Origin: Candidatus Entotheonellaceae bacterium
GTDB taxonomy: Bacteria; Tectomicrobia; Entotheonellia; Entotheonellales; Entotheonellaceae
Length of the DNA stretch: 64,000 nt
Direction: 5' to 3'
Assembly: GCA_965238075.1 (NCBI GenBank)
Contig: OZ250173.1
Location: 1,632,001-1,696,000 of the forward strand
Below, piece after piece: positions 2,007-12,521 of this stretch; the stretch's first letter is position 1; each line of letters begins with the position of its first letter. The position numbers and the translations under genes are program-made. Below the pieces are notes generated by a model that was given only the letters and a program-made list of their open reading frames with translations, was not told the origin of the DNA and ran no database searches.

Positions 2007-4682
2007 TTAGGCGTCGGGGGCGCGCGGCAGGCTGACGAGGTTGGCCAGCAGGCGGTAGGCGCCGGGAACGCCGGCGGGAAGTTGGCGGAACAGGGCATAG
2101 GCGCAATAGACGTAGTGGCCGCGACCCAGCCGGGCACGCAGCAACCCGCCGCGCCGGGGCGGCTCGCCGGGGTCGGCGCTTTCCAGCAGGGGCGTCATGT
2201 GCGGCGGCCATTCAGCGAGGAAATAGAGGCCGCGCTCCTGTTGCCAGCCGCTGAAGTCTTCAGTGCCCAGTCGATTCGGAAAGCTCAGGAGCGGGTCGTC
2301 CGCTGCCAGCAGGCGGACCGGCGCGGCGGCTTGGCTCACCCTCGGGGCCGGGCGCGGCAGGCTGACGCCGTCGAAGGGCACGAAGCGGCCCGGGCCATCC
2401 TCGCGCGGCTTGTGATATTGCACCACCACCGTGCCGCCGCCGCCCGCGTAGTCCCACAGCCGGCGGCGATGCGCAGCCAGAGAAGGGCTCGTTTCGAGGG
2501 CCCGCACGCCGACGACAATCGTATCGAATTCCGCCAGACTTCCATTCTGCAAATCATCTTCATCGATCGTTTGGACGCTGACGCCAAGCGCGCTCAGCGC
2601 CTCCGCAACGCCGTCGCCGGTACCCGGCAGATAGCCAACCCGCAAACCGGGCGCCACCTCGACGGGAACGATGCTGACGCACACCTCGGCCGGCGCCAGC
2701 ACGTACCCCGGCTCAAGGTGCGGATAACGCACGTCCTGCCACGATCTGAGCCGTGAGGCGGCCTCGGCGCCCGCCGCCGGAGTGATCTGCTCCTGCCATT
2801 CCACCCCAAACACCCGCTTGCCGGATGCGCCGGAACCGATGGGCAGCGTTTGCTGAACGGTGCGCTGCTCGCCGGCTTGCAGGCTGAGCGCGGCGGATGC
2901 GTGCGCTTCCGGCTGGCCACCGTCGCAGGTGCGCAGAACCAATCGGCCTCGACCGGCGGCATGGGCGTGCAGTTGCACGTCTACCGTCGGCACTGCCGCG
3001 CTGGATGCCGGTATGACAATGAGGCTCGGCGAAACGCTGATGGTGACGGTCGGGCGTACCCGCAGTGGGTGTCGCAGCTCACCGCGGGCGGGGTCCAGTT
3101 CGCGCCACGCAATGGGCGCCGACAGCGGAATGTCCAAGGCCTGCCCTGAACCCCGGATCAGGTCCGGGGCAAGCTTTGATTCAGCGTCACCGGCGTTCAG
3201 CATCGCCCGAACCCGTAGCGGCGGCAACGCGGCGGGCGCCAGGCACGGCAGCTCCTCATCAAAGCGATACAGGTCGGCCTCGGGCGGCAGGCGCAGCCAC
3301 GGCGGCAAGGTGGCCGCCACCGCGGTTGCCTCATCCTGCGGCGCCGTGAGGCGGAAACGCGCCGTAACGCTCCCACCGCCGCACACCTTCAACGGCAGCG
3401 CCGGGCCTTCGAGACACTCGACCTGCCAGCCCGGTTGCGCGTGCGCTTGCAGGGACGACAGGGTGACGTCGCTGTTGCCGCGCAGGAACAGTTCCGCTTC
3501 GACGTCTACGATGCCGCCGGCAATCACGTCGGGCTTCGCCGCCAGCACTTCGAGGGCAAGGCCGTGGGTCTGCAGCCAAGCCGCTTCAATGCGCCGCTGG
3601 CATTCCCGCAAGCGGTCGTGTAGGACCGTGGGCTCGCCGTCGAGCATCCGAATGGCATTCGTGAGCGCGCCAAGCCCGGCGGCGAGCGTGGGAGCCGTCC
3701 GTTCAGGCCGTTGCGGGTGGTAGCTCTCCCAAGCCGCGTCCAGGTGCTGCACGGCGGATTCAATGGCCGCGACGACGTCCGGGCGGTTCAAGGCTTGCCG
3801 GCCAGAGGCCGCCCGCGCCCACGCCTCCAGCCGCACGGGCAGACCCTCCAGCGGGTTGGCGTCCTGGCCGCCGGGTGGCGGCGGGCCCGCCGCCACCCGG
3901 TAGACAACGTGCTGGGCGCCCTTCAGCAGTAGTGCGCCCATGTTCTGCGAGCGGTGCAGGCTGCGGCCCTGCATGGCGATCTCAAAACACGAGCGCCCGA
4001 GGAGCGGATCGAAGCGCCCAACGTGGATGTGCAGATCGTCTGCCGCCTGGTGCGCGGCGTCCCGCACCCGCACCAGGAGGCGCTTCGGCCACCAGGGAGA
4101 CAGCCCGGCCCGGATCTGTTCCGGGAACGCCGCCGCATCGCCGGCCCGTTCGAACGCCTCGCGGGTTGCGGCGCCGCACGCCCGATGATGGCCATGCCCA
4201 TCGATCGGCGTGCCGGTCCATATCGAGATCACCACGTCGGGCTGCAGCGCCCGGATGGCCTGCACGATGCTGCCCACCACACGCTCGCGCGGCCAGTGCG
4301 CAAAGGCATCCTCAGCGCGTTTGGCGTAGCCGAAATCGATGCACGGCGAGAACAGTTGCTCGGCGCCGTCGTAGCGCCGGGAGGCCAGCAATTCGCCGGC
4401 GCGCAACACCCCGAAGGCAGCGCCGGATTCGGGGCCCAGGCAGTTCTGTCCGCCCTCGCCGCGGGTGAGCGACAGGTACGCGGTGCGGACGCCGTGACGC
4501 AGGGTCAACTCGGCGAGCAGGGCGCTGTCCTCGTCGTCCGGATGCGCCCCGACCATCAGGGCGCGCGCCGCCACCGGCAGGCCGCGCAGTGACAGAGGAA
4601 GGGAAACGGCGGTATGGGTCAATGCTGTGTGTTCGGTCACGGTGTTGCCTATGCGTGGGGTGTGAGTTACGAGCGCGGCCAT
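2007..4682 (-). CDS. Large PIG-L/LmbE-family deacetylase with central Ig-like (NEW3-type) domains and a C-terminal glutamine-amidotransferase-like domain
   Basis: Motifs AHPDDED, SLTRGEGGQN, DFGYAK, HGHHRA, RSLHRSQNMG. The C-terminus has VGYLPGTGD...GGTVVVQY...GWQQERGLYF...LFRQLPAGVPGAYRLLANL. Confidence 0.9.
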   Translation of the reverse strand: MAALVTHTPRIGNTVTEHTALTHTAVSLPLSLRGLPVAARALMVGAHPDDEDSALLAELTLRHGVRTAYLSLTRGEGGQNCLGPESGAAFGVLRAGELLASRRYDGAEQLFSPCIDFGYAKRAEDAFAHWPRERVVGSIVQAIRALQPDVVISIWTGTPIDGHGHHRACGAATREAFERAGDAAAFPEQIRAGLSPWWPKRLLVRVRDAAHQAADDLHIHVGRFDPLLGRSCFEIAMQGRSLHRSQNMGALLLKGAQHVVYRVAAGPPPPGGQDANPLEGLPVRLEAWARAASGRQALNRPDVVAAIESAVQHLDAAWESYHPQRPERTAPTLAAGLGALTNAIRMLDGEPTVLHDRLRECQRRIEAAWLQTHGLALEVLAAKPDVIAGGIVDVEAELFLRGNSDVTLSSLQAHAQPGWQVECLEGPALPLKVCGGGSVTARFRLTAPQDEATAVAATLPPWLRLPPEADLYRFDEELPCLAPAALPPLRVRAMLNAGDAESKLAPDLIRGSGQALDIPLSAPIAWRELDPARGELRHPLRVRPTVTISVSPSLIVIPASSAAVPTVDVQLHAHAAGRGRLVLRTCDGGQPEAHASAALSLQAGEQRTVQQTLPIGSGASGKRVFGVEWQEQITPAAGAEAASRLRSWQDVRYPHLEPGYVLAPAEVCVSIVPVEVAPGLRVGYLPGTGDGVAEALSALGVSVQTIDEDDLQNGSLAEFDTIVVGVRALETSPSLAAHRRRLWDYAGGGGTVVVQYHKPREDGPGRFVPFDGVSLPRPAPRVSQAAAPVRLLAADDPLLSFPNRLGTEDFSGWQQERGLYFLAEWPPHMTPLLESADPGEPPRRGGLLRARLGRGHYVYCAYALFRQLPAGVPGAYRLLANLVSLPRAPDA
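3139..3174. repeat. REP-like palindrome inserted in frame in the PIG-L gene
   Basis: Hairpin CCCCGGATCAGGTCCGGGG at 3151-3169, translated as LAPDLIRGSGQA. Confidence 0.65.
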
Positions 4683-4708
4683 TATAACGCCTCAGCGCCG
4701 TGTGGACA

Positions 4709-4750
4709 GGGGTTTGGGAGGTCGGGAGGTTTGGGAGGTCGGGAGGTTTG
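4709..4750 (+). repeat. 17-bp tandem G-rich repeat in a divergent intergenic region
   Basis: (GGTTTGGGAGGTCGGGA)x2 followed by GGTTTG; five GGG tracts. Confidence 0.85.
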
Positions 4751-4871
4751 TGTTATACAAGGAAAGACGCGGGGGCAGTCGGTTTGCTTCGCCAATCCGG
4801 CCTGCGTGTATGCCTGCACAAGTCTGCGATTGACAATGATTCCAACCCACGGGACAAACGACCGGATTCTC

Positions 4872-6026
4872 ATGCGACAACTGAAGGATTTAATGGCCTG
4901 CGGCGAGGGCGTGGCGTTCCTGGCTGAGCGGGATATGTTTGTTTGCGAGGCGGAATTCGCGGCGCGGCTGCAGGCGCCCGCGAACGGGGCGCTGGCGGCC
5001 TATTTTGAGGCTCCGCAAGGCAAGCCAGTATACGCGCTGCAGCAACTCTACACCGATTGTACGCCCTCGATGCTGGACCGCATGGCTCTGCTGCGCGATC
5101 TCGAACAGCGTCCGGCCTGCTTGCCCTTCTTTCTGTGGATCGACACCGACCTGGCCGGCAGCGACCCGCTCATGCTGCGAATGCTGTGGACGGTGTTCGG
5201 CAAGCAGGTTTCGCTGCGCCTTTGCCCCGCCGCCAATGACGTCCGCGAGTTGCGCTTCATCCCCGTTGATTCCGCCGCCGTGCGGGACGCCCTCGCCAAG
5301 CTTGAGGTCTACGTCAGCCAGTCCATTACCGGGCGCAAAAAGGTGGCGCGCGCCCGCATCCGGGAGCGACTGGACACGCTGCGGGATGTCCTCCTGCCGG
5401 ACCCGCCCGCCGCGCACAGTGACCTGAATCACCGATTGAGCTGTTTCCTGCTGAACCACCAGGCTGCGTTGAATCCGCATTCTGTCCGGGTATCCGAACT
5501 CCTCGCCCGCGGATTGCTCACGGCGTCAGCCAACGAATTCATCAACCGCCTCGACGACGCCATCCGCGTTTTCAACGCCGCTGCCGAAACCTTGAGAACC
5601 CAAGGCATCGAGCCGCACGTCAAGCCATTGGCGCCCGACTACCTGCCGCTGCACGTATCGTGCCGCGACTGCCGCCGCCGTTTGCGCCTGCGCCGCGAAA
5701 CGCAGGGCGTCGATCAAGTCGCCGCTGCTCGGTGCCGATGCGGCGAGGCGTACCGTTTTCATCTGGGCGGCAAGCGTTTATCCATCGATGCCATTACCGA
5801 CGCCGCCGACTGGAGTCCCGACGTGTCGCTGACGCTGTTTCTGAACGATTTGGTAAGCGGCTACGTCGCCGGCGCCAGTTCCGGCGCGTACTATGGCCTG
5901 GTGATGGCGGAGGTGCTGCAACAGGTGTTCGGCAAGCGCCGCGTACCCATCCTGCTACCGCGGCTCGACGGCGCCGGAGCCAGCGGCGGCTTGCTGTACC
6001 GTTATCTCATGGAAGGCACGGGATAA
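4872..6026 (+). CDS. Divergent BshC-like protein (putative amide/cysteine ligase)
   Basis: Colinear degenerate BshC motifs: PVYALQQ, LPFFLWIDTD, LRTQGIEPHV, WSPDVSL...YVAGASSGAYY...VPILLPR. It sits 4 bp upstream of bshB1. Confidence 0.6.
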   Translation: MRQLKDLMACGEGVAFLAERDMFVCEAEFAARLQAPANGALAAYFEAPQGKPVYALQQLYTDCTPSMLDRMALLRDLEQRPACLPFFLWIDTDLAGSDPLMLRMLWTVFGKQVSLRLCPAANDVRELRFIPVDSAAVRDALAKLEVYVSQSITGRKKVARARIRERLDTLRDVLLPDPPAAHSDLNHRLSCFLLNHQAALNPHSVRVSELLARGLLTASANEFINRLDDAIRVFNAAAETLRTQGIEPHVKPLAPDYLPLHVSCRDCRRRLRLRRETQGVDQVAAARCRCGEAYRFHLGGKRLSIDAITDAADWSPDVSLTLFLNDLVSGYVAGASSGAYYGLVMAEVLQQVFGKRRVPILLPRLDGAGASGGLLYRYLMEGTG

Positions 6027-6030
6027 GGTT

Positions 6031-6756
6031 ATGGAAGAGGCGTTGGACATCTTGGCATTTGCCCCGCACCCGGACGACGCCGAACTGGGCTGCGGGGGCA
6101 GCCTGATTGCGGCGGCGGACAAGGGCTGGCGGGTTGCGGTGGCAGACCTGACGGCGGGGGAGTCATCCAGCCGCGGCACCCTCGAGCAGCGAGAGCGCGA
6201 AACCCAATGCGCCACGGCCTTGCTTGGTCTGACGGCACGTTTCTCCTTGGGCCTGCCGGACGGCGGCATCGGCACCCACCCGGACCACCGCCTGCCGATC
6301 ATCGAGGTGGTCCGCCAAACGCGCCCGCGTATCGTCCTGGCGCCCTACTGGGAGGACCGTCATCCTGATCACTCGCGGGCCAGCAATCTGGTGCGCGAAG
6401 CCTGCTTCTTCGCCGGTGTCGGCAAAATCGGCGACGGCGAGCCGTATCGCCCGCCACTGCTCTACTACTACCTGCTGCACACGCCTTTTTCGCCGTCGTT
6501 TATTATGGATGTGTCGTCCGTGTGGGAGCGCCGCATGGCCGCGGTGCGGGCATATGAGAGCCAGTTCATGGCGGGCGAGAAGACCGCTACGACGGCCTTG
6601 AGCCGGCCCGGCTTCCTGCGCGCCCTGGAAGCGCGGGCGGTGTGGTTCGGTTGGATGATCGGCGCAAGCCACGGCGAGCCCTTTCTGAGCGCCACGCCGA
6701 TGGCCGTCGGCAGCATGCCGGGTCTGCCGCCGCAAGCCGGTTTTCCCCCGGCTTAG
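6031..6756 (+). CDS. bshB1: Bacillithiol biosynthesis deacetylase BshB1
   Basis: LDILAFAPHPDDAELGCGG, DLTAGESSSRGTLEQRERE, DRHPDH, AYESQF, GWMIGASHGEPF. Confidence 0.85.
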   Translation: MEEALDILAFAPHPDDAELGCGGSLIAAADKGWRVAVADLTAGESSSRGTLEQRERETQCATALLGLTARFSLGLPDGGIGTHPDHRLPIIEVVRQTRPRIVLAPYWEDRHPDHSRASNLVREACFFAGVGKIGDGEPYRPPLLYYYLLHTPFSPSFIMDVSSVWERRMAAVRAYESQFMAGEKTATTALSRPGFLRALEARAVWFGWMIGASHGEPFLSATPMAVGSMPGLPPQAGFPPA

Positions 6757-6885
6757 AGCGGTCTCTGGCGGGTAAACTTCAACTTATCGAAGCGTTTATT
6801 TCGTAGGACATCGAACCAGCGTTTTCGTTCCGCGAGGGTTGGGTTTTTTGCGGTTTTGGCACGCGTTTTCGGTCAAGGATTTGTT

Positions 6886-6970
6886 GTAGGGGATGTAACC
6901 CCCCTTGCCCCCCTGACAAGGGGGGTTGGGGGGTTGCACCAACGCAGTAGCCCCGCCACTCGTGGGCACC
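6886..6970. repeat. GTAG-type REP-like hairpin cluster between convergent genes
   Basis: Nested stem TGTAACCCCCC..CCCCCCT-GACA-AGGGGGG..GGGGGGTTGCA (6894-6938) preceded by GTAG. A second GTAG-led imperfect hairpin starts at about 6947. Confidence 0.6.
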
Positions 6971-7120
6971 TCTTTGTCCAAAGCCTCACGCACCGTCCCA
7001 CATGCTGGCTCTCCGGCGCGGCCGTCCTGCCCATGAGCCTGAACCTATCGCATCGGATGCTCAGGGTTGGTTCGCCCATTGTGGATGCGTGCTGCCTACG
7101 ACTTGCCACCGGCAGCCCGT

Positions 7121-7777
7121 CTAGCGTTTATAGTTCTTCGCATACGCCGGAAGCGCGATACCGGCTCGGAGCTGCGGATCGGCAACCGGCAGTTGTGATA
7201 CCAGGCGTAGCGGCACCTCACCCGCCCAGCAGTCGAGTTGGTAATCGTCCTCATCATCCACTGGCGGCCCGGAGCGAATCTTTGCCGACACCTCTTCCAA
7301 GGGCACCCGTATCACGCTCGTGGCCTTCAGTTCCTGAGCGGACGGTTCGCGGACGTCCTCCCATCGTCCAACCATGACGTGATCGACGATGGCTTTGAGG
7401 GCGGCCATCTTTTCGTCAGAGTCGGTGACCTCCCTCGCCTGGCCGAGAACCACGACGGAGCGGTAATTCATCGAATGATGAAACCCCGAACGCGCCAGCA
7501 CCAGACCGTCCAGCAAGGTGACCGTGACGCAAACCGGCATCCTCCCCCCAATCGCGCCCAGCATCCGGCTCGCAGCAGAACCGTGAAGATACAGATGATC
7601 CTCGATACGAGCGTAGATCGTCGGGATGACATACGGCTGACCGTCAACACTGAAGCCGACGTGGCAGAACAAGCCTTCCGCCAAAATGGCCTCAACAACC
7701 GCGACGTCATACGAAGCCCGCTTCGGCATGCGTCGTATGCGGATGCGCTCGGTTTTCTCGTACTGCGGCATGGACAT
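7121..7777 (-). CDS. Pyridoxamine 5'-phosphate oxidase-like flavin-binding protein (NimA-like)
   Basis: RASYD, CHVGF...QPYVIPT, LYLHGS..SRM, LDGLVLARSGFHHSMNYRSVV, SAKIRSGPP. Confidence 0.9.
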   Translation of the reverse strand: MSMPQYEKTERIRIRRMPKRASYDVAVVEAILAEGLFCHVGFSVDGQPYVIPTIYARIEDHLYLHGSAASRMLGAIGGRMPVCVTVTLLDGLVLARSGFHHSMNYRSVVVLGQAREVTDSDEKMAALKAIVDHVMVGRWEDVREPSAQELKATSVIRVPLEEVSAKIRSGPPVDDEDDYQLDCWAGEVPLRLVSQLPVADPQLRAGIALPAYAKNYKR

Positions 7778-7821
7778 TAACCCTTTTTTCCTTGTGCCTG
7801 CGTGTTCCCGTCTACCCTACT

Positions 7822-8946
7822 TTACGGCTGGTAAAGCGCCTCGTAGGCACGCACGCCCTGTTCGACCCCGAAGCCGCTGGCGTGTCGGATGGCCGCCTGC
7901 CGCATGGCTTCGTGCTGCGCCGGATCTGTCAACAGGCCCACGGCCAGATCAATTGCCTCGGCGTTGTCGCCAAGCGGAAAAAACAGCCCGGTACGGCCCC
8001 GCATCACCACCTCCGGCAGCCCGCCCACGCGCGTCGCGAGCACCGGCACGCCGCACGCCATGGCTTCCAGGGCCACCATGCAGAAACTTTCGTACAGGCT
8101 GGTCACGAGCAGCAGGTCGGCGCCGCGCAGGAAGGGCGCCACGTCGCGCTGCAGGCCCAGATAGCGCACGTCGTCCGCGTAGCAGCTGCGCTCCAGCAGC
8201 GCCCGCACGGCGGGTAGATCCTCGCCGCTGCCCACGAGCCACAACTCGGCGTCCAAACGCTCGCGAATGCCCAGGAAAATGCGCGCCACGCTGGGGGTGT
8301 CCTTGATCGGTCTGAAATTGGAGACATGCACGATACGGAGCGGTCGCGCCGGGTGGGAGGGCGGGGATGTTAGTAGGCATGGTTTGAAGCGCGCCAGGTC
8401 GATGAAATTACTGACCACGCGCGGGCGAGAAGACAGGTTGAACGCCGCGGCAGCCAATTTCGCGTGGCTGAAGGAAACGGTGCTCAGCACGTCGTTGCAG
8501 CGCAAAGCGGCGGCCAGTTTCGGCGCCACCGCGGGGTCCTTGCCAGAATGTGTCACGTCGGTGCCATGCAGCGTGCCGATCAGCCGGGGCGCCGCGTCGC
8601 CCAGGCAGCGGTGCACGTTCTGCGCCACAAAGGCGAACGGCACGGCATAGTGGAAATGCAGCACGTCCAGGCGCTCGGCGGCAATGACCCGCAAAATGTC
8701 CTCGGTGTAGCGCTGCAGATCGCCCTCCGACCAGTCGGTATGCAGGGTTGCCGGGTGCTGGGTATCGGCGGCGTCCGGCAACAGGGTGTGCAGCACCACC
8801 CCATTCGACCGGTCCCAGCCGACCAGCGGCGTCGTGCGGGTGAACAGGTGTACCCGATGCCCACGCCTGGCCAGAGCAATGGCCAATTCGATGCCAATGC
8901 GGGCGCTGCCGCCGAAACTGGCGTGACACATCATGCCAATTCGCAT
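7822..8946 (-). CDS. bshA: BshA-like GT4 glycosyltransferase (N-acetyl-alpha-D-glucosaminyl L-malate synthase family)
   Basis: MRIGMMCHASFGGS, LHFHYAVPFA, TLHGTDVT, HVSNFRPIK, ESFCMVALEAMACGVPV. Confidence 0.75.
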   Translation of the reverse strand: MRIGMMCHASFGGSARIGIELAIALARRGHRVHLFTRTTPLVGWDRSNGVVLHTLLPDAADTQHPATLHTDWSEGDLQRYTEDILRVIAAERLDVLHFHYAVPFAFVAQNVHRCLGDAAPRLIGTLHGTDVTHSGKDPAVAPKLAAALRCNDVLSTVSFSHAKLAAAAFNLSSRPRVVSNFIDLARFKPCLLTSPPSHPARPLRIVHVSNFRPIKDTPSVARIFLGIRERLDAELWLVGSGEDLPAVRALLERSCYADDVRYLGLQRDVAPFLRGADLLLVTSLYESFCMVALEAMACGVPVLATRVGGLPEVVMRGRTGLFFPLGDNAEAIDLAVGLLTDPAQHEAMRQAAIRHASGFGVEQGVRAYEALYQP

Positions 8947-8968
8947 GCCTCACTCCTCTTGTTTTGAA

Positions 8969-9000
8969 TTTGGATGCTGCCCATTTTAGATGCTGCCCAT
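8969..9000. repeat. 16-bp direct repeat just upstream of bshA
   Basis: TTTGGATGCTGCCCAT followed by TTTAGATGCTGCCCAT. Confidence 0.85.
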
Positions 9001-9005
9001 CCGAT

Positions 9006-10475
9006 TTACAAACCATCGAATTCCGGCCGGTACGCCACGACGCCGCGAATGCCGTGCAGTGCGCCCCGCTTCAACGCCTGAACCATGAAGGCGTCCGGCG
9101 GCCCGGCGTGTTCCCAGTTGATGCCCAAGGGCTTGGCCGGCTTGAAACCGAAGCGCCCATAAAACTGCGGGGCGCCGAGCACGAAGACGATGCCGTACGG
9201 CGTTGTGCCGCAGGCCGCCAGCCCCGCCCGTACGAGCCGCGAGCCGATGCCGCGGCGCTGCCATCCCGGCAACACCGCCATCGGCGCCAGCCCTAGGGCG
9301 CTGAGGGTGCTTGTATCGTCCCGAATGACCACCGGGCTGAAGGCGATATGTCCGACGACCGTGCCGCCCTCGACGGCCACCAATCCAATACGCAACGCGC
9401 CGGCGGCCCGCAGGGCATCGACTAGGTTGGCCTCATCCGGCCGCCCAAACGCCTCGGCGTGCACTCGGCGGATGGCGGCGATATCGCCGCCGGCCTCAGG
9501 CCGAATGCCGCTCATGGGAGCCGTCCCTTCCGCTTGCTGCCTAACACGCAACAGCGCCAGCAGCCCCTCGTCGCGGCGCGCCGCGAGTGCCTGTCCTTGT
9601 TCCGGCGTGTACGTATAGAAACCGCTGCCGCTCTTGACCCCGAGCCGCCCTTCGGCCACCCGTCGATGCAGAACCGACGGCACCTCGGCGGCGCTGTTCA
9701 GGTCCTGAAACAGATAGCCGGCGATGGCGTCGAACACGTCCAGGCCGCCGAGATCGGCGATCTCCAGCGGGCCGAAGAGCGCCCAGCGCAGGCCGATGCC
9801 GTGCTTGATCGCCGCGTCCACGTCGGCAGCCGACGCCACACCGGCTTCGATGAGGTGCAGCGCTTCGCGCATGAGCGCAAATTGCAGCCGGTTGGCGATG
9901 AATCCCGGCACCTCGCGCCGCACGAGCACCGGGCGTTTGCCCAGGCGCCGCGCCAGGGCCGTCAGCACTTCGCAGGTGGCAGCGGACGTTTCTTCTCCTT
10001 TGATGATTTCGACGATGGGAATGATATGGGGCGGATTGGCGTAGTGTAACCCCACAAAACGCCCCGGCTGCGACACCGCTTCGGCGATGCGCGAGATGGA
10101 CAGGCCCGAGGTGTTGGTGGTGAAAAGCGTCGCGCCGCCGCATAACCTGTCGAGCGCCTTGAACAACGCCTGCTTGGCCGGCAAGTCTTCGGCAATGGAT
10201 TCCGACACCAACTGCACGCCGGCCAAGTCGGCCAACACCTCGGTCGGATACAGCCGTGCCAGCGCCACCTCCGCTTGACCTGCCGTCAGCACCCCGTGAC
10301 GGATCAGCAGGCTCTGGTTGTCCCGGATGCGCGACAAGCCGCGCTGCAGCCCCGCCGCCGAGCGGTTGTACCACCGCACCGCGTATCCGGCCTGCGCGAA
10401 TACCTGGGCGATCCCCGCGCCCATGGTACCGGCCCCCACTACGCCCACGTCCGTGATGTCTCCGAGTTCCATCAA
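9006..10475 (-). CDS. 3-hydroxyacyl-CoA dehydrogenase family protein, in frame with a C-terminal GNAT (YhbS-like) acetyltransferase
   Basis: Dehydrogenase motifs VVGAGTMGAGIA, ESIAEDL, TNTSGL, HYANPP, PGFIANRLQ, LGVKSGSGFY. The GNAT part begins at ATG 9515: VGHIAFSPV, LAPMAVLPGWQRRGIGS, VLGAPQFYGRFGF. Confidence 0.85.
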   Translation of the reverse strand: MMELGDITDVGVVGAGTMGAGIAQVFAQAGYAVRWYNRSAAGLQRGLSRIRDNQSLLIRHGVLTAGQAEVALARLYPTEVLADLAGVQLVSESIAEDLPAKQALFKALDRLCGGATLFTTNTSGLSISRIAEAVSQPGRFVGLHYANPPHIIPIVEIIKGEETSAATCEVLTALARRLGKRPVLVRREVPGFIANRLQFALMREALHLIEAGVASAADVDAAIKHGIGLRWALFGPLEIADLGGLDVFDAIAGYLFQDLNSAAEVPSVLHRRVAEGRLGVKSGSGFYTYTPEQGQALAARRDEGLLALLRVRQQAEGTAPMSGIRPEAGGDIAAIRRVHAEAFGRPDEANLVDALRAAGALRIGLVAVEGGTVVGHIAFSPVVIRDDTSTLSALGLAPMAVLPGWQRRGIGSRLVRAGLAACGTTPYGIVFVLGAPQFYGRFGFKPAKPLGINWEHAGPPDAFMVQALKRGALHGIRGVVAYRPEFDGL

Positions 10476-10601
10476 TCCTCTCCCCTTGCGGCGCCGTGAC
10501 GCCCGTCGCCAGACAACGACCTTGCCCCTGTGCTGTGAATCCCATCATAATACGTCACCTTACGAATCCCGGCGCCCGGCGCCGAAACAAGGAGGCACGA
10601 C

Positions 10602-11810
10602 ATGTACGATCTGTTGCTGACAGGAGGCACGGTTGTCGACCCGTCCGTCGGGTTGAGCGGGCGGCACGACATCGCCGTTCAGGACGGCAAGATTGCCCAC
10701 ATTGCACCCCTCATCGCGGGCGACGAGGCGACGCGGGTTATCGACGTGTCCGGCCGGACGGTCACGCCGGGCCTCATCGACCTGCACGCCCACGTCTTCG
10801 ACGGCGTCATCAGCAACGGCGTGCATCCCGACCTTGGCGGGGTGCATTCGGGCGTCACCACGGTGGTCGATGCCGGCAGCGCCGGGTGCGCCACCTTCAG
10901 CGCCTTTCCCCGCTACATCATGCCGCAGTGCCATACCGAGATCATTCCCTTCCTGCACATCTGCCAGACCGGCTTGGCCACCATGCCCGACATCATGGCG
11001 GAAAGCAGCATCGACCTCGACGGCACGCTGCAGACGGTGGACCAAAATCGCGGGCTGATCCACGGCATCAAGGCCCGCATGGTGTCGCCGGCGCTGGAGA
11101 TCTTCGGCATGGAGATGCCCCGCTTGGCGCGTCGCGCGGCGCGCGAAAGCGGCACCCGGCTGATGGTCCACATCGGCGATACCGAGAAGCGCTATGACCC
11201 CAACGTCATCCGCGAGCTGCTGCCGCTGCTGGACGACGGCGACATCCTCACCCACTACTTCACCGCCAACCCCGGCGGCGTGCTCGACGCCAACGGCAAG
11301 CTGGTGCCCGAGGCGCGCGAGGCGGCCAATCGCGGCGTCTGGCTCGACACCGCCCACGGGCGCATGAATTTCAGCTTCGACGTGGGCCGCCGCATTATCG
11401 ACCAGGGCCTGCTGCCGCATTGCATCAGCACCGACCTCACGGTGCCGGGGCGCCGCATCACCGTCCACAGCATGACGGAGATGATGAGCCGCTTTCTCGC
11501 CCTCGGCTTCACCCTGGAGCAAGTTGTGACCATGTGCACCGAGAACCCGGCCAAGGCCATCGGCGCCGAACACCGTCTGGGCAGCCTAGGCGTGGGGCGC
11601 CAGGCCGATATTTCCGTGCTGGATATCCGGGAGGGCGAGTGGGTGGTGTACGACGTGCTGGGCGCCAGCCTGCCGGTGCAGCGGGCCTTCGTGCCGGTGC
11701 TGACGGTCAAACGGGGGCAGGTCTTCGAGCCGGACTGGGGGCCGCGGCCCTGGGGCTGGGAGCCGGACCGGGCGCCGCTGGCGGGCGCAACCTTCAATGG
11801 CTGCTGCTGA
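10602..11810 (+). CDS. Amidohydrolase/deacetylase-family metallohydrolase (dihydroorotase-like)
   Basis: PGLIDLHAH, GVTTVVDAGSAG, GIKAR, LMVHIG, GDILTH, DTAHG, ISTDL. Confidence 0.9.
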   Translation: MYDLLLTGGTVVDPSVGLSGRHDIAVQDGKIAHIAPLIAGDEATRVIDVSGRTVTPGLIDLHAHVFDGVISNGVHPDLGGVHSGVTTVVDAGSAGCATFSAFPRYIMPQCHTEIIPFLHICQTGLATMPDIMAESSIDLDGTLQTVDQNRGLIHGIKARMVSPALEIFGMEMPRLARRAARESGTRLMVHIGDTEKRYDPNVIRELLPLLDDGDILTHYFTANPGGVLDANGKLVPEAREAANRGVWLDTAHGRMNFSFDVGRRIIDQGLLPHCISTDLTVPGRRITVHSMTEMMSRFLALGFTLEQVVTMCTENPAKAIGAEHRLGSLGVGRQADISVLDIREGEWVVYDVLGASLPVQRAFVPVLTVKRGQVFEPDWGPRPWGWEPDRAPLAGATFNGCC

Positions 11811-11816
11811 GCGCTT

Positions 11817-12521
11817 ATGAACAACTCCGTGCAACTGATCCCGATCGCCCAGCTAGCGCTCGTTTTTCTGCCGGTGGCAGTCGTGGTGGTGCTGCTGTAT
11901 CGCTGGTCGCTGGGCGTCGGCACAACGCTGTACGCCATGGCGCGCATGCTGGTGCAATTGCTGCTGGTCGGCTACGTCCTGACGTACATCTTCGAGACCC
12001 GGCACGCCGGCCTCGTCATCCTGGTGCTGGCCGTCATGCTGATCGCCGCCAGCTGGATCGCCCTGCGCCCCCTGCCGGGGGACCGGCGTCGGCGCTATGC
12101 CAGGGCGCTGGGCTCCATGGCGCTCGGCGGCGGGCTGACGCTGGCTCTGGTCAGCCAGGGCGTCCTGGCGCTCAATCCCTGGTTCGAGCCTCGCTACATG
12201 GTGCCCCTCGGCGGTATGATCTTCTCCAACGCCATGAACACCGTAAGTCTGGCGGCGGAGCGTTTCGAGGCGGAAACCGCCAATCAAGTGCCGTACGAGC
12301 AGGCGCGTAATACCGCCCTGCAGACGGCGCTCATCCCGCTGATCAACTCGCTCTTCGCCGTCGGCTTGGTGGCCCTGCCGGGCATGATGACCGGCCAGAT
12401 CCTGTCGGGCGTGTCGCCGCTGATCGCGGTACGCTACCAGATCATGGTGATGTGCATGACGTTCGGCTCGGCGGGCATTTCAGCGGTGTGCTACCTGATG
12501 CTTGTGAAGCCGCGTGGGTGA
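11817..12521 (+). CDS. fetB: FetB/YbbM (UPF0014) ABC permease
   Basis: RMLVQLLLVGYVL, PRYMVPLGGMIFSNAMN, VGLVALPGMMTGQILSGVSPLIAVRYQIMVM. Confidence 0.85.
   Translation: MNNSVQLIPIAQLALVFLPVAVVVVLLYRWSLGVGTTLYAMARMLVQLLLVGYVLTYIFETRHAGLVILVLAVMLIAASWIALRPLPGDRRRRYARALGSMALGGGLTLALVSQGVLALNPWFEPRYMVPLGGMIFSNAMNTVSLAAERFEAETANQVPYEQARNTALQTALIPLINSLFAVGLVALPGMMTGQILSGVSPLIAVRYQIMVMCMTFGSAGISAVCYLMLVKPRG

Follow-up and report, generated by a model that had tools for sequence, protein, structure and literature searches.

How might a genome that carries genes for BshA and BshB1, and in which no canonical BshC is recognized, complete a bacillithiol-type pathway? This question is raised by a gene cluster near the start of a 64,000-nucleotide stretch of DNA from a Candidatus Entotheonellaceae bacterium (GenBank assembly GCA_965238075.1, contig OZ250173.1, positions 1,632,001 to 1,696,000), here referred to as the window. 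The host genome is a single 3.35-Mb contig that is 93% complete, and the nearest named relatives of the window are metagenome-assembled genomes (MAGs) labelled "uncultured Candidatus Entotheonella sp.", which belong to the Tectimicrobiota. The central gene of the cluster, here called mini-bshC (4872 to 6026, plus strand), encodes a protein of 384 amino acids that has no Pfam or NCBIfam match and for which a BshC fold is predicted. It is followed by bshB1 (6031 to 6756, plus strand), which starts 4 nucleotides past the mini-bshC stop codon and encodes a 241-amino-acid GlcNAc-malate (N-acetylglucosaminyl-malate) deacetylase that scores 270.9 bits on TIGR04001 (cut-off, 182.5) and 89.6 bits on the Pfam PIG-L model. 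On the minus strand lies bshA (7822 to 8946), encoding a family 4 glycosyltransferase (GT4) of 374 amino acids that scores 279.9 bits on TIGR03999 against a cut-off of 273.7. A fourth gene, also on the minus strand (2007 to 4682), encodes a multidomain PIG-L/LmbE-family protein of 891 amino acids with an N-terminal Pfam PIG-L (PF02585) match of 58.1 bits; it is transcribed divergently from mini-bshC, and the two genes share a 189-bp intergenic spacer (4683 to 4871). An initial annotation of this DNA had placed a BshA, a BshB1, a cryptic BshC-like reading frame and a divergent LmbE-family gene here, and all four are confirmed. The mechanical open reading frame around mini-bshC spans 4614 to 6026, and we set the start of the gene at 4872 because 35 of 35 aligned homologues begin at the methionine encoded there.

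The cluster is a conserved and previously unannotated variant with a minimal BshC, a co-inherited clade of BshA and, often, a giant PIG-L protein. We consider it likely that the locus specifies a variant of the bacillithiol-type pathways, one that leads to a low-molecular-weight thiol and in which mini-BshC takes the place of BshC, with substrates and product assigned from family membership. In such a pathway, BshA would join UDP-GlcNAc (uridine diphosphate N-acetylglucosamine) to L-malate or a very similar hydroxy-acid, BshB1 would remove the acetyl group, and mini-BshC would add cysteine to the free amine. The 891-amino-acid protein would most plausibly be an accessory partner that works on the GlcN-malate scaffold, either as another deacetylase or as an amidase for conjugates, in the manner of BshB2/Bca or Mca. 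Such a pathway probably yields bacillithiol or one of its close analogues.

Kinship of mini-BshC with BshC

The mini-BshC protein of the window has 111 homologues in a set of 5.8 billion proteins, nearly all of them 380 to 395 amino acids long, and every named one is annotated as "hypothetical". A profile of the family matched 170 clusters at an E value of ≤1e-3, and 99 at ≤1e-30, in a representative set of 1.84 billion proteins clustered at 50%. An alignment of 36 members with 34 to 89% identity contains 36 invariant columns. From these 36 rows, AlphaFold produced a model with a predicted local distance difference test score (pLDDT) of 93.2 and a predicted template modeling score (pTM) of 0.90. 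The initial annotation had suspected a relative of BshC, and the top Foldseek match of the model is indeed BshC from Bacillus subtilis (4WBD; E value of 2.8e-11). In a VIA comparison, 350 of the 384 residues align with 4WBD at a Z score of 27.7 and a root mean square deviation (rmsd) of 3.0 Å, with 12% identity. The next VIA matches are class I lysyl-tRNA synthetase (LysRS; Z score of 19.9) and cysteinyl-tRNA synthetase (CysRS) and MshC (Z score of about 10.6). The latter two have a core of the same class I aminoacyl-tRNA synthetase (aaRS) type, add or activate cysteine, and are functional analogues for the final reaction that leads to a Cys-GlcN-X thiol; their structural match to mini-BshC is distant. 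Both MshC and CysRS rely on zinc for binding of the cysteine thiol.

Profile-profile comparison points in the same direction as the fold. With hhalign, the mini-BshC family aligned with 20 canonical BshC sequences over 273 columns (91.6%; E value of 8.4e-7), and columns 58 to 376 of the family mapped onto columns 88 to 384 of the 548 columns of BshC, that is, onto the Rossmann-like domain alone. As read from this alignment, the stretches QQ, P-F-x-W-x-D, (W/F)SP(D/N) and G...Y line up. The residues invariant in canonical BshC are GQQ, G101, K108, P129, F131, D137, S330, G352, E355 and Y358, and of these, QQ, P-F-W-D, S, G and Y are kept; the glycine of GQQ is a leucine in the protein of the window and a glycine in some other members of the family. 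A sequence bridge between the two families is provided by P0252, a protein of 551 amino acids, as it is reached by the mini-BshC profile at an E value of 3.1e-9 and is also positive for the BshC model PF10079 (60.9 bits). Searches of solved structures with the single mini-BshC sequence and then with the profile returned nothing relevant, the best matches being U1A (E value of 0.62) and UvrB (E value of 0.045), and hence the kinship is visible only to fold and profile-profile methods. Taken together, mini-BshC is a true but very remote homologue of BshC that has kept the class-I-aaRS-like Rossmann domain and lost the coiled coil.

Like BshC (YllA in B. subtilis; PF10079 plus PF24850), mini-BshC has a class-I-aaRS-derived Rossmann-like core and is clustered and codistributed with BshA and BshB proteins. 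The main differences are in size (384 amino acids, against about 540 for BshC) and in what surrounds the core. The coiled-coil domain PF24850 has no counterpart in mini-BshC, the alignment ending at about position 384 of the 548 in BshC; among the canonical homologues listed, 118 of 120 consist of PF10079 plus PF24850, and P0348 and P0365 have PF10079 alone. According to the available text of a 2018 review (PMC5790435), BshC dimerizes via its coiled coil. The existence of a natural form of 384 amino acids that consists of the catalytic core only shows that, whatever reaction the enzyme carries out, it can do so without the coiled coil, and mini-BshC offers a smaller and simpler protein for work on the biochemistry of the BshC step, which has not been reconstituted.

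A feature found in mini-BshC and not in canonical BshC is a hairpin with three cysteines. Where BshC has a plain, shorter hairpin, the mini-BshC model has a four-strand ribbon, in which C264, C288 and C290 are invariant in the family alignment. The fourth ribbon position (C267) is a cysteine or an aspartate in many members and varies further in others. A weak match to a zinc-ribbon Pfam model was obtained for 10 of the 36 members, with a best E value of 0.0042. We infer that the hairpin is zinc-ribbon-like and would bind zinc.

Cysteine pairs occur at the same place in two long BshC-like proteins. P0252 has a C...CxxC pattern at the position of the hairpin, and P0258, which is 609 amino acids long, has no Pfam match and is reached by the mini-BshC profile at an E value of 1.8e-7, has CxxC...CxxC there. 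Both are long forms, unlike mini-BshC, and the C-terminal region of P0258 is rich in lysine and glutamate. A ribbon of this type is thus not unique to the short form, and the zinc-ribbon feature may have arisen before the coiled coil was lost. We also noticed a second unannotated branch of short BshC-like proteins, A5 (P0233, P0236, P0238, P0243, P0245, P0254 and P0257). These proteins are 416 to 495 amino acids long, have no Pfam match, contain the motifs GQQPY, RWSPDVF and VSGRGSxRYS, and align with canonical BshC over 310 columns in hhalign (93.8%; E value of 1.8e-7).

Distribution and clustering of the bsh genes

If mini-BshC performs the function of BshC, the two should replace each other among genomes that keep BshA and BshB1. 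We examined 17 species genomes of Tectimicrobiota and a sample of 201 Anaerolineae genomes, many of them incomplete. Mini-BshC is present in 9 of the 17 Tectimicrobiota genomes, that is, in all six of the genus of the window and all three of a second genus, counts that overstate the number of independent cases, as the genomes within a genus are kin. Canonical BshC (PF10079) was found in three other Tectimicrobiota genomes and never beside the mini form. BshA scored above the cut-off in exactly these 12 genomes, with 280 to 310 bits where mini-BshC is present and 491 to 493 bits where BshC is canonical, and the remaining five genomes lack mini-BshC, PF10079 and BshA altogether. Among the 201 Anaerolineae genomes, 3 have mini-BshC, 12 have PF10079 and none has both. 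BshA is above the cut-off in 14 of them: the 3 with the mini form (307 to 324 bits) and 11 with canonical BshC, 10 of which score 484 to 508 bits and 1 of which is a partial match at 291 bits. In the remaining PF10079-positive genome, G051, no BshA was found at an E value of ≤1e-70. PF10079 is likewise absent from all five further mini-BshC genomes, which belong to the Chloroflexota and Zixibacteria. This complementary distribution in two phyla, with BshA and BshB1 kept, is what functional replacement predicts, and we conclude that genomes with mini-BshC have it in place of canonical BshC.

The initial annotation had asked whether the same genes occur together elsewhere, and they do. Fifteen genome loci were recovered with a 16-row subalignment, and their neighboring genes were identified by tblastn with the proteins of the window. 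The carriers are Entotheonella-type Tectimicrobiota, some Anaerolineales and Dehalococcoidia, another Chloroflexota MAG and a Zixibacteria genome, a taxonomic range that is a lower bound because the subalignment reaches closer relatives only. In 14 of the 15 loci, BshB1 is encoded no more than about 2.5 kb away from mini-bshC, the exception, L019, being a contig of 3.6 kb; in 10 of the 15, bshB1 lies directly 3' of mini-bshC. BshA is encoded within about 5.2 kb in 13 loci and elsewhere in the genome in L017, the contig of L019 again being too short. The arrangement is not constant. Mini-bshC followed by bshB1, with bshA opposite, is seen in Entotheonella, the Dehalococcoidia and the other Chloroflexota MAG; three Anaerolineales loci have the order mini-bshC, bshA, bshB1, and a fourth (L026) has bshA, mini-bshC, bshB1; the order on the Zixibacteria contig is mini-bshC, PIG-L gene, bshA, bshB1. 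As the gene order differs between groups, the clustering is maintained and not merely inherited. The clustering of these genes is not due to chance, and the same set is found in loci from the Tectimicrobiota, Chloroflexota and Zixibacteria.

These data also bear on whether the frame at 4872 to 6026 could be a decaying remnant, or a nonenzymatic accessory, in a pathway that no longer works. The loss of BshC-invariant residues and of the whole coiled-coil domain could be read in this way. However, a decaying gene is not expected to be of uniform length in three phyla and to retain 36 invariant columns among them, to be represented by 170 clusters at an E value of ≤1e-3 and 99 at ≤1e-30, or to give a model with a pLDDT of 93. 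In addition, all nine Tectimicrobiota matches are free of stop codons, and the clustering persists through changes in gene order. We therefore regard a remnant as very improbable.

Within the genome of the window, the cluster is the only thiol pathway recognized among those searched for. A genome-wide six-frame search returned no PF10079 match; the score on the GshB model was 21.6 bits (cut-off, 299); no match was obtained for GshA of the Escherichia coli type (PF04262); and the MshC model found only a CysRS-like gene (247.6 bits, against 485). The initial annotation had raised the possibility of a separate canonical pathway in this genome, and neither a canonical bshC nor an mshC gene is there. 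Metatranscriptome contigs from two studies extend over the locus, filling 30 of 30 bins for libraries X7 to X9 and 28 of 30 for X17, and a single RNA-library contig of 5,272 nucleotides covers positions 3745 to 6912 at about 96% identity. These contigs derive from relatives that are about 96% identical, indicate presence only, and may stem from DNA in the libraries. The contigs of all four RNA-library runs diverge from the window at about 6907 to 6947, just downstream of bshB1, and this break fits a strain-level rearrangement, as in loci L014 and L017.

Apart from the kinship of genomes within a genus and the nature of the RNA libraries, several points weigh against a bacillithiol-type pathway with mini-BshC as the cysteine-adding enzyme. 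None of the 36 family members matches PF10079 even at an E value of ≤10, and none reaches the NCBIfam BshC models. In the hhalign reading, the seven-residue PGLxTGP loop with G101, which is invariant in BshC, is deleted, and the BshC-invariant residues K108 and E355 are replaced by threonine and serine, respectively. The best match to YpdA/Bdr in the genome of the window scored 42.8 bits against a cut-off of 339.9, and neither a DUF1094 bacilliredoxin nor YtxJ was found in it. YpdA is, however, below the cut-off in all 17 Tectimicrobiota genomes, including the 3 with canonical BshC, and its absence therefore cannot tell one pathway type from the other. Finally, according to the available text of the review cited above (PMC5790435), reconstitution of the BshC reaction has never been achieved and the donor of activated cysteine is unknown; to assign cysteine addition to mini-BshC is thus to stack one deduction on another.

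Some of these points would also suit an enzyme that does not handle cysteine and instead contributes to a nonthiol GlcN-malate compound or catalyzes another ATP-dependent or aminoacyl-type reaction. Mini-BshC is not a member of the BshC family at the sequence level, searches of the genome returned no bacillithiol-using redox genes, and 2 of the 36 members weakly match the Pfam family of class I LysRS (E value of 0.15), the second-best structure. For LysRS 1irx, 271 residues align at a Z score of 19.9 (Foldseek E value of 6e-8; 14% identity). The likeness to LysRS covers the catalytic core only, though, and mini-BshC has neither an anticodon-binding domain nor another tRNA-binding domain beyond the part that aligns with the BshC core; its context is thiol biosynthesis and not translation. 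Among the structural matches, BshC also stands well ahead of all others, with a Z score of 27.7, followed by 19.9 and about 10.6, and the strict complementarity with canonical BshC in two phyla, with BshA and BshB1 kept, is as predicted for a functional replacement. A noncysteine enzyme thus seems improbable to us, and we retain mini-BshC as the likely replacement for BshC in a thiol pathway.

Genomes with the mini form would so far have been scored as lacking the pathway, because surveys rely on BshC models or on BLAST searches with canonical BshC. The criterion given in the available text of the survey by Hiras et al. in 2018 (PMC6282198) is an identity of at least 30% and a similar length. 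Hidden carriers of the pathway would therefore include Entotheonella-type Tectimicrobiota, some Anaerolineales and Dehalococcoidia, and a Zixibacteria genome. A 2020 review on archaea, as far as its text was available, reports BshA and BshC detectable by InterPro in Asgard archaea; unlike mini-BshC, these Asgard forms are visible to family models. A literature search, outside which most subscription journals lie, returned no work that joins bacillithiol and Entotheonella, names BshC-like proteins or brings bshA, bshB and bshC together with Chloroflexi.

A separate BshA clade and the nature of the product

The BshA protein of the window matches BshA from Bacillus anthracis (2jjm/3mbo; E value of 7e-55) and from B. 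subtilis (5d00; E value of 2e-45), and seven BshA proteins from other mini-BshC loci score 294 to 324 bits on TIGR03999 (cut-off, 273.7). For a comparison within the same two phyla, we aligned 10 BshA sequences from mini-BshC loci with 11 from genomes with canonical BshC. The initial annotation had described the BshA of the window as divergent, and it falls into a clade of its own: in a maximum-likelihood tree, the variant and canonical sequences are split with 100/100 support by a branch of 1.18 plus 1.12 changes per column, in a tree that is unrooted, has no outgroup, and has long branches meeting at the central split. Six columns are fixed differently between variant and canonical sequences (V16R, T124G, T144L, I148L, P282T and M331A). 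Those in the N-terminal, acceptor half of the variant protein include V16R next to the GGS loop and T124G just before LHGTD, and the N-terminal domain also contains an insertion of about 10 residues. The glycine of the ESFG motif, present in 11 of 11 canonical sequences, is a cysteine or serine in 10 of 10 variant sequences, the window having ESFC. The motifs GGS, HYAxP, LHGTD, NF(I/V)D, SNFRxxK and LEAMAxG are kept.

The grouping within the tree departs from the relationship of the species. The BshA copies of the Dehalococcoidia and the other Chloroflexota MAG join those of Entotheonella (99/99) and not those of the Anaerolineales of their own phylum. This suggests that the genes for mini-BshC and BshA move between phyla together, as a module. 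The strict pairing of mini-BshC with its own clade of BshA, together with such joint transfer, may mean that the product is chemically different.

The initial annotation had gone further and proposed that both the glycosyltransferase and the ligase depart from the consensus and that a product other than bacillithiol is made. The first part is borne out by our analysis. For the second, a bacillithiol analogue would require another hydroxy-acid or UDP-sugar to be used by BshA, a different or differently activated amino acid to be used by mini-BshC, or both. The long branch between variant and canonical BshA and the fixed or nearly fixed changes in the acceptor half (V16R, T124G and the insertion) would be in line with this, as would the serine at the BshC-invariant position E355 in mini-BshC. 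The change in the ESFG motif is also of note. In the available text of PMC10361700, ESFG is described as hydrogen bonding to GlcNAc in Staphylococcus aureus BshA, and the residue at the glycine position is described as setting the preference for UDP-Gal or UDP-Glc in a related GT4 enzyme, which keeps a different product in play. On the other hand, every variant BshA passes the equivalog cut-off and retains the motifs listed above, and BshB1 scores 250 to 279 bits on TIGR04001 in the variant clusters, higher than the 191 to 196 bits of relatives from the same phylum with canonical BshC. This strong equivalog match argues that the GlcNAc-malate intermediate is unchanged, and it speaks against the second part of the earlier proposal. 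We therefore see an analogue of this kind as a tentative alternative.

A bolder version holds that mini-BshC and the variant BshA constitute a separate, horizontally mobile pathway with a product other than plain bacillithiol, in which mini-BshC is a self-sufficient, zinc-dependent ligase and the PIG-L protein is the dedicated recycling amidase. The three cysteines of the hairpin would then form the site that binds the thiol of the cysteine, like the sites of CysRS and MshC, without the coiled coil or an extra partner. We judge this combination to be unlikely. If it were true, reconstitution in vitro would be possible and could reveal the chemistry of the BshC step. Replacement of BshC in a bacillithiol-type pathway remains the reading that we prefer for the locus.

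The giant PIG-L protein and neighboring genes

The model of the 891-amino-acid protein (pLDDT of 85.7; pTM of 0.89) comprises an LmbE deacetylase/amidase domain (residues ~36 to 270), a helical bundle (~285 to 373), β-sandwich domains (~375 to 650) and a C-terminal ThuA-like/GATase1-like domain (~678 to 891). In VIA comparisons, the LmbE domain matched LnmX (5bmo; Z score of 21.3, 204 residues aligned, rmsd of 2.6), MshB (1q7t; Z score of 21.3, 236 residues aligned, rmsd of 3.1) and BC1534 (Z score of 18.8), and Foldseek matched it to MshB at an E value of 4.7e-10. The C-terminal domain (678 to 891 of the model) matched the ThuA-like protein 1t0b (Z score of 16.5, 195 residues aligned, rmsd of 3.1). 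H47-P-D-D-E51, H163 and H166 are invariant in 24 aligned homologues, and we take these HPDDE and HxxH residues to be metal ligands, as in MshB; no cysteine is invariant among the 24, the ThuA-like/GATase1-like domain included. With the LmbE fold, HPDDE and HxxH motifs and a position beside thiol genes, the N-terminal domain resembles BshB2/Bca and Mca/MshB, from which the protein differs in its additional helical bundle, β-sandwich and ThuA-like domains. Matches to the models of known enzymes are far below the cut-offs (31.5 bits against 277.15 for Mca, TIGR03446, and 23.2 against 182.5 for BshB1), and the BshB2 model TIGR04000 gave no match.

The gene is next to mini-bshC at every Entotheonella locus, at three Anaerolineales loci and on the Zixibacteria contig. 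In the Tectimicrobiota, a full-length or nearly full-length form is present in nine of nine genomes with mini-BshC, in two of three with canonical BshC and in none of the five bsh-free genomes. Among the 201 Anaerolineae genomes, with four candidates per genome scored, it is present in exactly the three with mini-BshC and lies beside that gene. It was not found in three of the four mini-BshC genomes searched outside the Tectimicrobiota: a Dehalococcoidia genome of 3.2 Mb and one Anaerolineales genome, both of which have the other three genes, and the Chloroflexota genome G021, in which the only match is of the N-terminal type and scores 84 bits. The family itself, whose members go by the name "PIG-L/LmbE family deacetylase", is uncharacterized and very large (>5,161 matches at an E value of ≤1e-10), and it occurs commonly in Acidobacteriota and Bacteroidota. 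The 891-amino-acid PIG-L gene is thus a frequent but nonobligatory accessory neighbor. From neighborhood and co-occurrence, the protein may plausibly serve the pathway as a further deacetylase or as an amidase for conjugates of the GlcN-malate scaffold. The initial annotation had seen a recycling amidase in this protein. The gene has held up as a recurrent neighbor, and the recycling role is a conjecture drawn from neighborhood and co-occurrence for a member of a huge family whose gene was not found in some mini-BshC genomes. The recurrent association nevertheless provides a functional lead for the whole family.

The spacer from which the PIG-L gene and mini-bshC diverge contains a 17-bp unit, GGTTTGGGAGGTCGGGA, that is repeated 2.4 times at 4711 to 4750 in the divergent promoter region. 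The extra copy is missing from the five aligned congeneric loci, and a gap of 17 bases at 4711 is likewise seen in the contigs from RNA libraries X8 and X9; it is a recent duplication. Just downstream of the repeat, a stretch TTGTGTTATACAAGGA is conserved in four of five congeners.

Between bshB1 and bshA lies a gene on the minus strand (7121 to 7777) for a protein of the Pyridox_ox_2 family (PNPOx-like/Nim-like flavin reductases; PF12900, 158.7 bits). It is found in this position only in the genus of the window (L013 to L017) and is absent from the clusters of other genera and phyla, and it is therefore outside the conserved module. Directly upstream of bshA is a gene for a 3HCDH-GNAT fusion (9006 to 10475, minus strand; 3HCDH_N, 182 bits; 3HCDH, 84 bits; C-terminal Acetyltransf_9, 43 bits). 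The GNAT part adjoins bshA in six of six genomes of the genus, including G009, in which bshA has moved away from mini-bshC, and it is a stand-alone frame of 177 to 218 amino acids in G009 and G010. We considered the GNAT half as a pathway-linked acylase similar to MshD and dropped it, as homologues also occur in bsh-free genomes (G003 and G012). Further on, an amidohydrolase gene (PRK09237, 377.5 against a cut-off of 371) followed by one for a UPF0014/FetB-like permease (10602 to 12521, plus strand) is kept beside the cluster within the genus.

Two further loci show local differences. In the congeneric MAG locus L016 (11755 to 13749), the 3HCDH-GNAT gene matches as two overlapping pieces and the amidohydrolase matches at its two ends alone (residues 1 to 36 and 298 to 402), which points to a frameshift together with an internal deletion or, alternatively, to assembly errors. 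In Entotheonella sp. TSY1 (L018), an extra small PIG-L paralogue follows bshA (9810 to 10706, minus strand); it has no NCBIfam match at an E value of ≤1e-30 and is 31% identical to BshB1.

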